IMG/VR virus record: IMGVR_UViG_2529293038_000029
DNA from: a virus
Lineage: Duplodnaviria; Heunggongvirae; Uroviricota; Caudoviricetes
Reading direction: 5' to 3' (one strand)
DNA: 11,345 nucleotides
Under the pieces are notes generated by a model. The model had not been told where the DNA came from. It saw only the letters and a list, made by a program, of their open reading frames with translations, and did not search any database. The translations under genes and the position numbers were made by a program. Shown here piece after piece: positions 1-11,345 of the stretch. The number at the start of each line of letters is the position of its first letter. Position 1 is the first letter of the stretch.

Positions 1-228
1 AGCGTGATCAGGTGTTTCATACTCCTGCCCAGTCTGTCCAGCTTCCAGACAACCAGCGTATCTCCTTCTGTATAGCGTTCTGATCAGTTTTTTCAATCCC
101 GGTCTGGCTGATTTCGTTCCGCTGATTTTATCTTCAAAAATCAGTTCACATCCTGCGCACTCCAGCGCGTTACGCTGCAATTCTGTATTCTGGTCATTTG
201 TTGATACGCGGACATAGCCAATAAGCAT
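1..228 (-). pseudogene. Inverted 5' fragment of a second serine-invertase gene copy; frameshifted and truncated by the window edge
   Basis: Minus-strand ATG at 228..226 corresponds to the invertase start at 2276. The sequence matches the first ~76 codons of the intact copy, but a 1-nt insertion near position 70 (tgtata versus tgata) breaks the frame. The copy continues beyond the left edge. Confidence 0.7.
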
Positions 229-284
229 GATGGATCCCCTGAATAAAAACCGGGGATGATGCCAGTTAGCCATAATCTCTGCAG

Positions 285-310
285 TTCTTGATTACGTTGG
301 TTTGGGAGAA
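285..310. other. Left hix/gix-like recombination site of the invertible segment
   Basis: Read on the minus strand it is TTCTCCCAAACC-AA-CGTAATCAAGAA: 12-bp half-sites around an AA core. The inner half is identical to the right site and resembles hix/gix half-sites (TTCTTGAAAACC). It encodes the VGLGE junction of the plus-strand tail-fibre frame. Confidence 0.6.
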
Positions 311-829
311 GGTGCTCCAGCTATTGGCGTTCCGTTCTTCTGGCCGTCCGCCGCAATGCCAAATACTGTAATCGACAGTTGGTCCAGTATGGTGTTTTTG
401 AAGTTCAACGGCGCGAAATTCTCTGCCACTGATTACCCTGTGCTGGCGAAAGTGTTTCCGGCGCTAGCATTACCTGACGCACGGGGTGATTTCATTCGTA
501 TCTGGGATGATGGGCGCGGGATTGATGTCGGACGTACCCTACTTTCAGGGCAATCACACACAATTATGGATCATGCACACAATATGGAATTGTGGACGGG
601 GGGCGGGCTTGCTGCAGGAAGTGCACGGGAAGGAGTAACCCCAGGAATACTGGCTACATATGGTGACGGGGGAATAGTTAAAACGGACGAACCCGGTCTT
701 AAGGTGCCTTCCTCACTACGAGCTCTTAGCTCTCGTAGTGTTAAACGTTATGGTGAAATTAGTGGACATGTAGGTACAGAAACCCGTCCACGAAATATTG
801 CATTTAACTTTCTGGTGAGGGCTAAATAA
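302..829 (+). CDS. Tail-fibre C-terminal variable (receptor-binding) cassette; no constant N-terminal part in frame upstream
   Basis: Carries the phage tail-collar pattern (PFFWP, YP.L...FP....LPD.RG.F.R..D.GRG.D..R..GS.Q.H.H.H) and ends ...PRNIAFNFLVRAK like other tail-fibre tips. The frame is open from 260 across the recombination site but is stopped by TGA at 257..259; there is no ATG, so the track start at 302 is a TTG. Its stop overlaps the next start (TAATG). Confidence 0.7.
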   Translation: MGEGAPAIGVPFFWPSAAMPNTVIDSWSSMVFLKFNGAKFSATDYPVLAKVFPALALPDARGDFIRIWDDGRGIDVGRTLLSGQSHTIMDHAHNMELWTGGGLAAGSAREGVTPGILATYGDGGIVKTDEPGLKVPSSLRALSSRSVKRYGEISGHVGTETRPRNIAFNFLVRAK

Positions 830-1422
830 TGAAACCTGTTTTTGATGAAAATGGGCTGACTACAGTGCCGGGCGATATGCGTTGTTTTTATTATAATGCA
901 GTAACGTATGAATATACCGGCTGGTCTGATGAATATATTAATACTGGCGTAAGTATACCCGCCTGTTCCACTGGTATTGACCCGGGCGAAAACATTCCGG
1001 GAAAAGTGGCAGTATTTACGGGTAAGGGATGGAGCCATGAAGAAGACCATCGCAATGAGACCGTTTACTCAACTGAAAATGGCGCAGCTGTTACAGTGGA
1101 TTATATCGGTGCCATCAAAGACGGTTATGTCACGCTTTCACCGTTAACGCCATACGATAAATGGGATGGTGAGAAATGGGTGACGGATACCGAGGCACAG
1201 CATAGCGCCGCAGTAGAAGCGGCAGAAGCACAGCGCCAGTCGCTGATTGATGCAGCAATGGCTTCCATCAGTCTGATTCAACTGAAATTACAGGCTGAGC
1301 GGAAGCTGACGCAGCCAGAAAACACCCGACTTAACACTGTGCTGGATTACATTGACGCGGTGACGGCAACAGATACCAGCACAGCGCCGGACGTCATCTG
1401 GCCTGAACTGCCGGAGGCGTAG
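829..1422 (+). CDS. Tail-fibre assembly protein (Tfa, P2 G / Mu U-like)
   Basis: 197 aa, directly downstream of and translationally coupled to the fibre cassette. Has the conserved Tfa C-terminus (...TAPDVIWPELPEA). Confidence 0.8.
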   Translation: MKPVFDENGLTTVPGDMRCFYYNAVTYEYTGWSDEYINTGVSIPACSTGIDPGENIPGKVAVFTGKGWSHEEDHRNETVYSTENGAAVTVDYIGAIKDGYVTLSPLTPYDKWDGEKWVTDTEAQHSAAVEAAEAQRQSLIDAAMASISLIQLKLQAERKLTQPENTRLNTVLDYIDAVTATDTSTAPDVIWPELPEA

Positions 1423-1834
1423 GCCATTCAATATCTGGCGCACCGGAAGTATCGACCAGTTCCAGTGCGTCCAGATAATCCAGCCACAAATTATATTGCG
1501 CCAGTTCCTCACCTTTCAGCCGGCCAATAGCCGCTTTACCAGGCCATTGTTTACTGTTCATATAATCGTTGGCCTGATTAATCAGTTGCTGCTTTTCCAG
1601 TTCGGCTGCAGCAATCTGTTCCTCATGTGTTGGTGGTGGAATTTCAGACCATGCAGGAAAACCATTTTCTCCAGCGATACGGATTTTTCCTTTCGGCGGT
1701 AATCCGGAAAACTCAATATACACTTGCTCATCAACTTCAACAGCATCATCTGGCCATGAGTCAGCTTGAGTGTAATCCTCTTTCATCTCCAGCGGATAGA
1801 AAGAGTTTGTAGTCGCGGAATATATGTAATTCAT
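1394..1834 (-). CDS. Alternate tail-fibre assembly protein (Tfa', Mu U'-like)
   Basis: 146 aa with N-terminus MNYIYSATTNSFYP and C-terminus ...SGAPDIEWPTPPA, typical of the Tfa family. GGAG Shine-Dalgarno 7 nt upstream of the ATG at 1834. Convergent with, and overlapping, the plus-strand Tfa by 29 nt. Confidence 0.8.
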   Translation of the reverse strand: MNYIYSATTNSFYPLEMKEDYTQADSWPDDAVEVDEQVYIEFSGLPPKGKIRIAGENGFPAWSEIPPPTHEEQIAAAELEKQQLINQANDYMNSKQWPGKAAIGRLKGEELAQYNLWLDYLDALELVDTSGAPDIEWPTPPAVQAR

Positions 1835-1855
1835 TTTTCACTCCATATAGCTAAA

Positions 1856-2248
1856 TTAACAGCCTAACGCTAAAAATGAAGCGCCGAGGCCAGGAGTACT
1901 GGCTCTGGATATAAATTTAACCGGGTCGGGACTAAAACCTGCACAGGCAATATAACCAACAGACCCGCTATCTGGTGTGTAGTCTTGTGAAACCAAAACA
2001 CGCAGACATCTGTTTGGAAATGCAATCGGGAAATGGGTTACTACATCCTGTGCAATGCCTGGTGCGCCGATTGAGCCCCACTGAAGAATAAAACCTGATG
2101 GTAATTTTTGATATCCAGTACCTGAAACAGAAAGCGTGAAGCTACCCATATCAGGTATCTGATTCGTCCCTGTCCCCACATTCTTTTTTGCCGCTTCTCC
2201 CAAACCAACGTTTAAGAAAATGCAGAGATTATGGCTAACTGGCATCAT
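1856..2248 (-). CDS. Alternate tail-fibre C-terminal variable cassette (Sv'-like), promoterless in this configuration
   Basis: Minus-strand ORF immediately upstream of Tfa', reading through the right recombination site (encodes NVGLGE). Its apparent N-terminus (to 2248) is antisense to the invertase leader and is probably not a real start. I do not recognise the domain. Confidence 0.55.
2195..2220. other. Right hix/gix-like recombination site of the invertible segment
   Basis: TTCTCCCAAACC-AA-CGTTTAAGAAAA: imperfect dyad, 12 + 2 + 12 bp with an AA core, close to hixL (TTCTTGAAAACC AA GGTTTTTGATAA). Lies just upstream of the invertase gene. Confidence 0.65.
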
Positions 2249-2502
2249 CCCCGGTTTTTATTCAGGGGATCCATCATGCTTATTGGCTATGTCCGCGTAT
2301 CAACAAATGACCAGAATACAGAATTGCAGCGTAACGCGCTGGAGTGCGCAGGATGTGAACTGATTTTTGAAGATAAAATCAGCGGAACGAAATCAGCCAG
2401 ACCGGGATTGAAAAAACTGATCAGAACGCTATCAGAAGGAGATACGCTGGTTGTCTGGAAGCTGGACAGACTGGGCAGAAGTATGAAACACCTGATCACG
2501 CT
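2195..2502. repeat. Right arm of the long inverted repeat (recombination site, invertase leader and first ~76 codons)
   Basis: Reverse-complement identity with 1..310 as described for the left arm. Confidence 0.85.
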
Positions 2503-2875
2503 TATTGAGGAATTGCGGGAAAAAGGTGTTAATTTCCGTAGTCTGACGGACAGCATTGACACATCAACACCCATGGGGCGTTTCTTTTTTCACGTCATGG
2601 GGGCTTTAGCCGAAATGGAACGTGAATTAATTGTAGAGCGTACACTGGCCGGGCTGGCAGCAGCACGCGCACAAGGACGCATTGGCGGACGTCGCCCGAA
2701 GTTGACAAAAGAACAACACGAGCAAATAGCGAGGCTGATTAAAAACGGTCATGACAGGAAACAACTGGCGATCATTTACGACATCGGCATATCGACGATT
2801 TATCGTTATCACCCTGTAGGCGATATACAGGCTGAAGAAACAACCAGGCAGACTCAGGAAAATGAAAACCGCTAA
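2276..2875 (+). CDS. Site-specific DNA invertase, serine recombinase of the Gin/Hin/Pin/Cin (Din) family
   Basis: MLIGYVRVSTNDQ N-terminus with the catalytic serine in the VRVSTNDQ motif, a resolvase-type catalytic domain (GDTLVVWKLDRLGRS) and a C-terminal helix-turn-helix (RKQLAIIYDIGISTIYRY). Start taken at the ATG at 2276, which has an AGGGGA Shine-Dalgarno; the track ORF starts upstream at 2231. Product is 199 aa. Confidence 0.9.
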   Translation: MLIGYVRVSTNDQNTELQRNALECAGCELIFEDKISGTKSARPGLKKLIRTLSEGDTLVVWKLDRLGRSMKHLITLIEELREKGVNFRSLTDSIDTSTPMGRFFFHVMGALAEMERELIVERTLAGLAAARAQGRIGGRRPKLTKEQHEQIARLIKNGHDRKQLAIIYDIGISTIYRYHPVGDIQAEETTRQTQENENR

Positions 2876-9938: not shown

Positions 9939-10604
9939 ATGAATATGCAAATTTTTATCGCACCAGCAGCCACAGTTGCTGCAGTCTGCCTTGCTGCATA
10001 TTTTGCTTTACGAAATGAACGTAAAAAGAAAGCACTTGAGATTAGAACAACTCAACTAGATCGAATATCAGAGCTAGTAAACCGAGCATCTACCAATTTG
10101 ATGCAATATACAGGTACTCTTGCCTCTATACTGGAAGCGCACGCCAAAGATAATTATCTACCGAACAAAAAATTTGACATTAATGTAATTAGCAAATGGA
10201 AAGATTGCCTCGATGAGAGTGAGGTCTGGGCGATTGATAGACAGCAACTAAGAACATGTCAGCACAGTCTGGAGTTTCATCGTGAAAAAGAATGGGCTGA
10301 ATGGAAAAAAATAATTCCACCATTACTTGATAAAATTGACCAATTTTTTCTCATATCTAAGCCAGGGCAACCTGTTACGTTTATAAATGGCCAAAACAAA
10401 ACAGCTGATGAACTACTTGTTTTCTCAAGATATTTGAGAAAACAAACAGCAGAAATTGAATCAGTACGTCAGCTGTTACTTTCTCAAATGAGAGAGGAAT
10501 TCATCGAGTTAACTAGCTTTGAACCTGTCACAATGTTTAGCTTATTTAAATCAATAAAGAAAAATGTCATGCAATTTTTCTGTATCAGTGCTCTTAAAAA
10601 TTGA
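9939..10604 (+). CDS. Hypothetical membrane-anchored protein: one N-terminal transmembrane helix plus about 190 aa soluble domain; AT-rich cargo gene
   Basis: 221-aa ORF with AAGGA Shine-Dalgarno 8 nt upstream. Hydrophobic N-terminus (IFIAPAATVAAVCLAAYFAL) followed by a K/E-rich domain I do not recognise. Visibly lower GC than the flanking phage genes. Confidence 0.6.
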   Translation: MNMQIFIAPAATVAAVCLAAYFALRNERKKKALEIRTTQLDRISELVNRASTNLMQYTGTLASILEAHAKDNYLPNKKFDINVISKWKDCLDESEVWAIDRQQLRTCQHSLEFHREKEWAEWKKIIPPLLDKIDQFFLISKPGQPVTFINGQNKTADELLVFSRYLRKQTAEIESVRQLLLSQMREEFIELTSFEPVTMFSLFKSIKKNVMQFFCISALKN

Positions 10605-10619: not shown

Positions 10620-10650
10620 AACCCCAGTGTTAAACTGGGGTTATTCTTGC
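10620..10650 (+). terminator. Intrinsic terminator downstream of the AT-rich ORF
   Basis: 9-bp perfect stem AACCCCAGT-gttaa-ACTGGGGTT followed by a T-rich tract (TATTCTTG). Confidence 0.55.
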
Positions 10651-10753
10651 TAAGAGACCTTTCTACGGCATCAGTAAACAAAACGAACTATCAGTTGGAG
10701 TCTGAGCAAGTTCAGCCTAAACTAGCGACAGCACTACGTTAAGGGAGGTCGCT

Positions 10754-11014
10754 ATGTTCCGTTGTCCGCTTTGTGGCGCATCTGCCCGTATCCGCACCAG
10801 TCGTCCGGAAAATGATTCAAACACCGTGCGGCAAAAGTATTACCAGTGTAACAACCTGGAATGCGGCGTATGCTTCTCAACACTGGAAGCTTTCCATAAA
10901 TTCACATCGAAACACGCCTCCGGCATCCACTCTTCAGAAGATATCCCGTGGCATGAGCTGCCAGCTTCACACAGGGGAAACAATCAGATGAGCTTGCCTT
11001 TACCTCAGAATTAA
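10754..11014 (+). CDS. ogr: Ogr/Delta-family zinc-finger late transcription activator
   Basis: MFRCPLCGASARIRTSR...YYQCNNLECGVCFSTLE matches P2 Ogr (MFHCPLCQHAAHARTSR...YHQCQNVNC..F.T.E), with a Cys-x2-Cys ... Cys-x4-Cys zinc-binding pattern. GGGAGG Shine-Dalgarno. 86 aa, longer than P2 Ogr at the C-terminus. Confidence 0.88.
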   Translation: MFRCPLCGASARIRTSRPENDSNTVRQKYYQCNNLECGVCFSTLEAFHKFTSKHASGIHSSEDIPWHELPASHRGNNQMSLPLPQN

Positions 11015-11074
11015 CAGGCAGAATTGCCGGAGTAACAAAAAAGCGATAGATTACGCGCGGGTGCCTTTCGGCTG

Positions 11075-11287
11075 ATGGTCGGAGGGAATACCCGAAGGCC
11101 AGATGTGGAAAGGCCCCGGAAAACATCTCTGTTTAACCGAGGCCCTAACCGCATTACCTTGACAAGTGAAAGGTTAGCGCCTCTCCGGAAAAGGAGCAAG
11201 TGCTATGTCGCAAAAATCGCTTACGGCCATCACGTTCTGCGTGACGGCAATCCTCATCATCTGGATGTTGCACGGTTCGCTGTGTGA
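11075..11287 (+). CDS. mok-like overlapping reading frame of a hok-type locus (tentative)
   Basis: 70-aa ORF in a different frame, starting about 130 nt upstream of the hok-like gene and overlapping it, as mok does in hok/sok loci. Assigned by position and length only. Confidence 0.35.
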   Translation: MVGGNTRRPDVERPRKTSLFNRGPNRITLTSERLAPLRKRSKCYVAKIAYGHHVLRDGNPHHLDVARFAV

Positions 11288-11345
11288 AATACGGATGAGC
11301 TTCTGGGGAGCGGAGTTTGCGGCGTTCTTACAGTGTAAGCAGTAA
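11205..11345 (+). CDS. hok: Hok/Gef-family type I toxin (small membrane peptide)
   Basis: 46 aa, MSQKSLTAITFCVTAILIIWMLHGSLCEIRMSFWGAEFAAFLQCKQ: an N-terminal transmembrane segment then the family signature SLCEIR ... E.AAF (compare Hok [22 protein letters not shown] and HokA ...AAFLACK). AGGAG Shine-Dalgarno 7 nt upstream. The stop codon is the last 3 nt of the window. Confidence 0.75.
   Translation: MSQKSLTAITFCVTAILIIWMLHGSLCEIRMSFWGAEFAAFLQCKQ

Follow-up and report, generated by a model that had tools for sequence, protein, structure and literature searches.

The last 320 bases of the virus sequence IMGVR_UViG_2529293038_000029 (Caudoviricetes; 11,345 nucleotides (nt), the whole of which we call the window) belong, in our reading, to a known kind of element, a hok/sok-family type I toxin–antitoxin (TA) module of ~400 bp carried as cargo by a P2-like prophage. 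We give this reading a probability of about 0.85. The family of the toxin, the RNA elements of its mRNA, its location in the prophage and the spread of the module are seen directly in the sequences compared.

The toxin gene is an open reading frame (ORF) of 46 amino acids (aa), translated as MSQKSLTAITFCVTAILIIWMLHGSLCEIRMSFWGAEFAAFLQCKQ in the ORF listing, in which a first-pass annotation of the window had recognized a Hok/Gef signature. Profile searches agree, with 29.9 bits against the Pfam model HOK_GEF (PF01848; gathering score 22), residues 7-44 aligning on profile positions 5-42 of 42, and a full-length match to PHROG 251 (E 1.3e-22). Aligning the peptide to HokA-E and to Hok of plasmid R1, as that annotation had recommended, placed C12, T14, L26-C27-E28 and E37 at conserved family positions (Cys16, Thr18, Leu30-Cys31-Glu32 and Glu41 of the family logo in the numbering of a 2025-26 preprint on Hok diversity; Escalera-Maurer et al., bioRxiv 10.1101/2025.08.07.668861), with 41% identity to K-12 HokA and 30% to R1 Hok. 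Judged by its sequence, the ORF is a real member of the Hok/Gef toxin family and not a chance ORF. Its top NCBIfam match is HokA (NF007290), where it fails the equivalog test with 34 bits against a cut-off of 89, and the identical RefSeq protein, WP_000078916.1, is labelled "Hok/Gef family protein".

Residue for residue, the same peptide is entry 72_1621 (clone LRP137) of Hok cluster 72 in the preprint, where this cluster is one of high abundance; the coding sequence given for it in Table S2 is one synonymous base apart from the window, and its predicted Shine-Dalgarno (SD) sequence is GGAGC. In that work 42 of the 45 tested Hok homologs were toxic, and hok was found enriched in prophages. The preprint text, together with the absence of 72_1621 from the three non-toxic entries, implies that a peptide identical to the window Hok is toxic on overexpression. 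The preprint deliberately left mok, Sok and mRNA structure out of its analysis. The PHROG label of the window protein, "MokW-like host killing", is a misnomer, the protein being a Hok and not a Mok. We rejected the identification of the locus as hokW-sokW that this name suggests, since HokW is another peptide from another cluster.

Upstream and downstream of the toxin gene, the locus has the layout of a hok mRNA (Table 1). The Rfam model RF01794, named "sok antitoxin", matches the plus strand at 11059..11218 over its full length (48.4 bits, E 1.2e-9). When run on K-12 loci as controls, the model picks out the strand of hok itself, with sokB and sokC annotated on the other, so the window match marks the hok mRNA leader, and we rejected it as the antitoxin itself. 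The first-pass annotation had expected the locus to run past the window edge, as indeed it does: in a genome 100% identical over window 10700..11345, from which these elements were read, a 3' untranslated region (UTR) hairpin, an fbi box and a terminator all lie within 125 nt. The fbi box AAGGCACCC, 57 nt past the hok stop, is complementary to the mRNA 5' end GGGTGCCTT (11059..), and a terminator hairpin with a T-run follows 21 nt after it. The minimum-energy fold of the full-length 409-nt RNA (z = -8.1) is closed by a 15-bp 5'-3' helix in which tac pairs with GGTCGA-T-AAGGCACCC; in the RNA without its 3' end, the 5' end folds locally.

We then compared these pairings across 30 distinct relatives. 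The tac/fbi helix is preserved, with 96.7% of cells paired. The alternative tac/ucb helix (11108..11117; ten pairs, positions 1-11 with 50-59) is kept in 30/30 sequences and is a stem of both the RNAalifold and the Rfam consensus; all its columns are invariant, so its support comes from conservation and not from covariation. The GAGGC/GCCUC pairs (83-87/125-129) are likewise kept in 30/30 sequences. Of the pairings that the first-pass annotation had proposed to look for by folding, tac/fbi is present. In the small hairpin preceding the toxin gene, pair 106/116 switches from U-A to A-U (8 vs 9 sequences), and the hok start region AUGUCGCAAA pairs with UUUGCGGCGU inside the coding sequence, every pair being kept in at least 29/30 sequences. 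The consensus fold, which combines tac/ucb, GAGGC/GCCUC and hok start/coding sequence, is what would be called the open form in R1. For a closed structure written by hand, the paired share over the 30 sequences is 95.2%, as opposed to at most 56% with slid partners; this percentage is inflated, since the structure was derived from one of the aligned sequences. Both partners have changed in eight of its pairs, most of which belong to the hairpin at the 5' end or to that of the 3' UTR.

The antisense RNA would lie on the minus strand over the leader. The first-pass annotation had expected it around 11040..11110, which is off by some 55 nt in the upstream direction. RF01794 model position 106 is where SokB and SokC of K-12 have their annotated 5' ends, and it aligns to window position 11163; by this homology we infer a Sok-like RNA at ~11163->11103, together with its promoter and both ends. 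The antitoxin annotation would have to be moved accordingly. As in SokB and SokC, the 5' tail of the predicted RNA is left free and is accompanied by a long GGGCCUCGG...CCGGGGCC hairpin (z = -4.0); the RNA ends in a UUUCC tail with no canonical U-run, its 3' end being a prediction. The -35 box of its candidate promoter overlaps the hok SD. The layout of this promoter resembles that of the R1-type locus (TTGCGC-17-TATCCT) and of sokB (TTGCCG-17-TAAGAT), and its columns (AGGTTA and GAGCAA on the mRNA strand) are invariant or almost so in the 30 relatives. Leader variability peaks at mRNA positions 62-78 and 92-112, with a column entropy of 0.65 bits against at most 0.35 elsewhere; in the pairing with Sok, they would correspond to its hairpin loop and to the site bound by its 5' tail. 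Hypervariability confined to the segments of Sok recognition suggests an antisense interaction under selection. The hok promoter was placed in the same manner: at the position of its candidate -10 box, relatives from unrelated contexts carry TAGATT, TAAATT, TACATT or TAGAAT, pointing to a possible promoter at 11024..11052.

Table 1. Features at the right end of the window (positions in the window; strand relative to the sequence as deposited).
Feature	Position	Strand	Remarks
ogr/Delta-like zinc-finger late activator, 86 aa	10754..11014	+	Pfam Ogr_Delta, 52.4 bits; RefSeq annotation of the identical region
Candidate hok promoter	11024..11052	+	-35 TTGCCG 11024..11029, 17-nt spacer, -10 TAGATT 11047..11052, 6 nt before G11059
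hok mRNA, first 287 nt	11059..11345	+	Transcript would run ~120 nt past the window end
tac element GGGTGCCTTTCGGCT	11059..11073	+	Pairs with fbi (outside the window) or ucb; invariant in 30/30 relatives
70-aa "mok-like" ORF	11075..11287	+	Overlaps hok in another frame; present in the window allele, not conserved
Predicted Sok-like antisense RNA, ~60 nt (60-64 nt)	11103..11163	-	5' end G (complement of C11163)
ucb / anti-SD box AAAGGCCCC	11109..11117	+	Pairs with GAGG (closed form) or tac (open form); invariant across relatives
GAGGC	11139..11143	+	At the mok SD position of R1, hokB and hokC (Rfam alignment); pairs with GCCTC 11179..11183 (dcb-like)
Small hairpin ACCTT-GACAAGTGA-AAGGT	11156..11174	+	Hypervariable; would be the target of the predicted Sok 5' tail; the accuu...aaggu stem of the Rfam consensus
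Candidate Sok promoter	11171..11199	-	-35 TTGCTC 11199..11194, 17-nt spacer, -10 TAACCT 11176..11171, 7 nt before the predicted start
hok SD GGAG	11193..11196	+	8 nt before ATG; in a small CUCC/GGAG hairpin (helix 6, 90% paired)
hok toxin gene, 46 aa	11205..11345	+	Stop codon is the final three bases of the window

Several of our results weigh against reading the locus as a hok/sok module. The RF01794 score stays below the Rfam gathering score of 59, as it does throughout the cluster (relatives 35.6-50.5 bits; R1-type, hokB and hokC 87-118), so that annotation based on Rfam would miss its members. A sigma-70 promoter scan of the ogr-hok-att region called nothing over threshold on either strand; the candidate hok promoter has 8/12 consensus positions, under the scan threshold, and the candidate Sok promoter, with 6/12, was not called either, which is why both promoters are placed by homology. 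Neither was a terminator-like site called on the minus strand at the Sok position, so the minus-strand promoter and short terminator that the first-pass annotation had proposed to look for did not come up in the scans. The tac/fbi helix has zero pairs changed on both sides; its core never varies, and covariation therefore neither supports nor refutes it. Finally, the toxicity assay of the preprint relied on overexpression from an inducible promoter with a fixed SD and not on the native leader.

The last points on this side concern mok. In R1, mok has a GAGG SD with its start 8 nt after and is required for Hok synthesis, which mutations of the mok start codon abolish. No such arrangement, a GAGG SD with a start 7-8 nt downstream in a frame overlapping the hok start, was found here: none of 30 full-length relatives has an ATG, GTG or TTG 4-13 nt after GAGG. 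No ORF starts upstream of the hok SD and reaches it at 30/95 loci (22/47 unique leaders) of a sample that is skewed to identical toxins, the IMG/VR scan having kept the best 80 protein matches. The same ORF test recovers mok with its SD in the controls (R1-type +112, hokC +94, hokB +89). The 70-aa frame that the first-pass annotation had described as mok-like is present and does overlap hok from upstream, but its role as a mok is not borne out by the relatives. At the loci of Chuche, P88 and 500465-2, which are 93-96% identical, a stop closes this frame and leaves no start codon, as is also the case in 933W, even where the encoded Hok peptide is the same as in the window (Chuche, L022 and others); a single leader allele, that of the window, has the 70-aa frame open. 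Across this region, indels of a length not divisible by three are frequent, and ATG 11075, which lacks an SD, falls within the tac stem. In the aligned loci, then, mok is not a conserved part of the Hok cluster of the window, and translation appears to be independent of a conserved mok frame, unlike in R1. A literature search for mok-less hok loci found nothing relevant. The absence of a conserved mok is only a mildly new point; the leader anatomy and the placement of the attachment (att) site are additional to the preprint.

We further investigated the location of the module relative to the prophage end. The last conventional phage gene here is ogr; the 70-aa frame starts 60 nt past its stop at 11014, the distance given in the first-pass annotation, and the hok ATG lies 190 nt past it. 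That annotation had left two alternatives, a prophage-borne module or the first host gene beyond the junction. The latter could be suspected from hok being the last ORF of the window, beyond ogr, and from the several hok loci that E. coli chromosomes carry; in P2, ogr borders the attachment site. The last 646 bases of the window (10700..11345) are 100% identical to several complete E. coli chromosomes. In one of them, TUM1887, which comes nearest to the right end of the window, hok is followed by ~300 nt and then ihfA. The empty site of K-12, the prophage-free comparison that the first-pass annotation had called for, is homologous only from 262 nt beyond the hok stop, and a 25-bp att core AAAGAAAAAAGGCCGCAGAGCGGCC from the ihfA terminator region is duplicated, flanking on either side the insert that separates ihfA from btuC. 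The same ogr-hok unit recurs elsewhere: 500465-2 has it at another chromosomal site, close to flk/fabB, and on an IncC plasmid it neighbors an integrase gene. Chuche and P88, both isolated phages, carry it as well, with the module placed between ogr and int; in Chuche the module lies between ogr and a com/methyltransferase-integrase block. The att mapping refutes the host-gene reading, to which we give next to no credence, and together with the presence in isolated phages it shows the module to be prophage cargo. The hok module is thus a moron of a P2-like prophage in the slot between ogr and att, with attR outside the window. This fixes the right end of the prophage, hok being inside and attR 262 nt further on.

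The TUM1887 insert between ihfA and btuC (L105, NZ_CP128963.1 2217000-2260000, at ~421..19536) measures ~19.1 kb and encodes tail, baseplate and fibre genes, an invertase, gpD, ogr, hok, a repressor-like helix-turn-helix gene and an integrase, without head, terminase, lysis or replication genes. It is a tail-only remnant that still keeps hok, and window 2282..11345 matches it at 99.2% identity. The ogr-hok stretch was found at 80% coverage or more in 1158/5426 complete E. coli genomes. A TA module at the prophage edge is a plausible reason for the persistence of the prophage, the 19-kb tail-only remnant included, in about one in five complete E. coli genomes.

Relatives were sought with a peptide-alignment profile in IMG/VR, of which the best 80 protein matches (100% protein identity) were kept; a profile search of genome contigs added little diversity, with just five loci, of which three sit on contigs whose host labels are improbable. 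Since these 80 IMG/VR loci were chosen for their protein identity, we did not take their counts of synonymous versus non-synonymous changes as a sign of selection. The module occurs in P2-like phages, after lom in ~170 Shiga toxin (Stx) phages, on IncI1 and IncC plasmids and at chromosomal sites near ykgM and serS. When relatives from unrelated contexts are aligned, they share a block of ~375 bp from near the -10 box (~11038) to the last base of fbi; since homology starts at the -10 box and stops at the last fbi base, this block is the moving unit. In 933W the relative of the window hok (L007, 45091-46265) is a second hok, just after lom, with 81% DNA identity; this lom-adjacent hok is unannotated in 933W and VT2-Sakai and is carried by ~170 other Stx phages.

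Several side observations were made on these relatives. Stx phages carry two different hok loci, hokW (cluster 35) and the relative of the window hok after lom. The copy on the E. albertii plasmid pEA5_1 (L013) is decayed: a TAG directly follows its first codon, 15 nt are missing from the coding sequence and the 3' hairpin is degraded, so the module can erode where it is not maintained. The locus near serS in CP061270.1 (L015) has two tandem Hok/Gef genes ~470 nt apart, the second 87% identical to the window locus; the record, a 1.2-Mb "plasmid" by its label, has the appearance of a piece of chromosome. Contigs L020, L021 and L023, assigned to Planococcaceae, Vagococcus and Xanthomonas pisi, carry enterobacterial hok genes with 72-98% protein identity, and these hosts are probably due to assembly contamination. 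The window ends on the hok stop codon (11343..11345), and 46 of the 80 IMG/VR contigs (L025-L104) likewise stop there, 3 nt after it. When the boundary is drawn at the last gene, the 3' UTR, fbi, the terminator and the attR arm are lost, and this truncation is systematic.

Set beside the named systems, the locus resembles hok/mok/sok (parB) of R1 in its architecture. In this order, both have a weak promoter, a 5' tac, a ucb/CCCC box, a GAGG, a target hairpin and a Sok promoter over the hok SD, the two promoters being candidates in the window; downstream, both have a hok start paired with the "AAF" codons, a 3' hairpin, an fbi complementary to tac and a terminator, in an mRNA of ~400 nt. The two differ in that their Hok proteins are only 30% identical, that the window lacks both the AUG 8 nt past GAGG and a conserved mok, that its fbi-terminator gap is 21 nt and that its Rfam score is under the gathering threshold. 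HokA of K-12 is the closest named protein, yet the window Hok fails its equivalog cut-off. The 5' ends and hairpins of SokB and SokC match the predicted window Sok position for position, whereas hokB and hokC each have their own mok with an SD. The K-12 hokA, hokB and hokC loci are fixed chromosomal sites; the window module travels with phages and plasmids. Among phage-borne loci, hokW-sokW of the Stx2 prophage Sp5/933W is a type I TA pair shown experimentally (PMC8621323). HokW differs from the window Hok, a member of cluster 72, in having 51 aa (MKQQKAM...) and in belonging to cluster 35 with HokD.

By analogy with R1, a weak promoter would start a stable mRNA of ~400 nt at G11059. The full-length RNA would be locked, with tac paired to fbi, the CCCC box covering GAGG and the hok start paired with hok codons. 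Slow trimming of the 3' end would strip fbi, allowing tac to refold on ucb and the leader to open, and the short, unstable Sok-like antisense RNA (~11163->11103) would pair with the opened leader, upon which the mRNA would be destroyed. Should the supply of Sok stop, through prophage loss, transcription shut-off or possibly infection or induction, the 46-aa Hok would be made, insert in the inner membrane and kill the cell. We infer both promoters, the Sok ends, these processing steps and the biological role of the module from such comparisons. Retention of the prophage is a plausible role; phage defense by abortive infection and help in lysis are alternatives.

How the hok start is opened admits several explanations. 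The locus could be a canonical hok/mok/sok, in which the 70-aa frame, from ATG 11075 or from its in-frame alternative starts GTG 11105 (GAAGG 6 nt upstream) or TTG 11159, is a working mok whose translation is needed to free the hok start, as it is in R1. In favor of this, the frame of the window allele stays open across the hok SD and start, this leader allele is the commonest in the sample (51/95 loci), 63/95 loci, the window included (GTG 11105), have a GAAGG ahead of an in-frame ATG or GTG at +45/+47, and the hok start is held by an intragenic helix that in R1 is opened by mok translation. A working leader peptide may therefore exist in the window allele. Nevertheless, the stops and missing starts at loci with the same Hok, the 30/95 loci with no suitable ORF, the frame-breaking indels, the absence of any relative with a start at the mok distance from GAGG, unlike the controls, and the poor position of ATG 11075 make a working mok rather unlikely. 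A more novel possibility, also less likely than not, is a cluster 72 that is naturally independent of mok: its startless GAGG could be a ribosome standby or loading site blocked by Sok, as that of tisB is by IstR-1, and the sharp hypervariability of the two Sok segments among phages with an identical toxin would stem from diversification into antitoxin alleles that do not cross-react. If this allele diversification is true, several such prophages could coexist in one cell. Of wider interest is that a large phage-borne Hok cluster retains all the RNA switch elements known from R1 with the exception of mok; should this be confirmed, the textbook rule that Hok translation is coupled to mok would not hold across the family.

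The lack of mok could also mean that the locus is a disarmed passenger, its toxin ORF intact but untranslated from the native mRNA and devoid of present function. The loss of Hok synthesis in R1 mok start-codon mutants fits this, as do the lack of a conserved mok in the cluster, the inactivation of several K-12 hok loci by insertion sequence (IS) elements, and decayed copies such as that of E. albertii, with its internal deletion and early stop. Against it, the hok ORF is intact in 24 unique coding sequences from unrelated contexts; tac, ucb, fbi and the SD are invariant or almost so, as would not be expected in a decaying locus; the restriction of hypervariability to the segments of Sok recognition suggests an antisense interaction on which selection still acts; and the module is present in more than a thousand complete E. 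coli genomes (1158/5426). We consider a disarmed locus quite improbable. Slightly less so, although still unlikely, is a main role in the phage lytic cycle, in lysis or release after induction, rather than in addiction or defense. The model for it is hokW-sokW, which makes lysis faster and causes twice as much phage to be released upon mitomycin C treatment (PMC8621323). Moreover, a terminator scan between ogr and hok called no terminator-like site, so ogr transcription could run into hok during the lytic cycle. The lysis data come, however, from hokW-sokW and not from the window Hok cluster; the same module resides on conjugative plasmids; and the TUM1887 remnant keeps it without head, lysis or replication genes, so help in lysis cannot be its use there. 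Between these alternatives, an R1-like type I TA switch remains our preferred reading.

Other features of the window were noted in passing. Between the gpD-like gene and ogr lies a 221-aa ORF with a hydrophobic N-terminus (9939..10604, plus strand), which had no significant match in Pfam, NCBIfam, PHROGs or PADLOC and is followed by a terminator-like hairpin, AACCCCAGTGTTAAACTGGGGTT, at ~10629..10651. Its slot is empty in Chuche and holds a different gene of 340 aa on the other strand in 500465-2, and looks like a second cargo position next to hok. At the other end of the window, a DNA invertase gene (2231..2875; PHROG 125, E 9e-100) adjoins the tail-fibre genes. Positions 1..222 match the TUM1887 element at 92% in the opposite orientation, and the rest of 1..2281 is unmatched there; this part of the window looks like an invertible or exchangeable tail-fibre segment.

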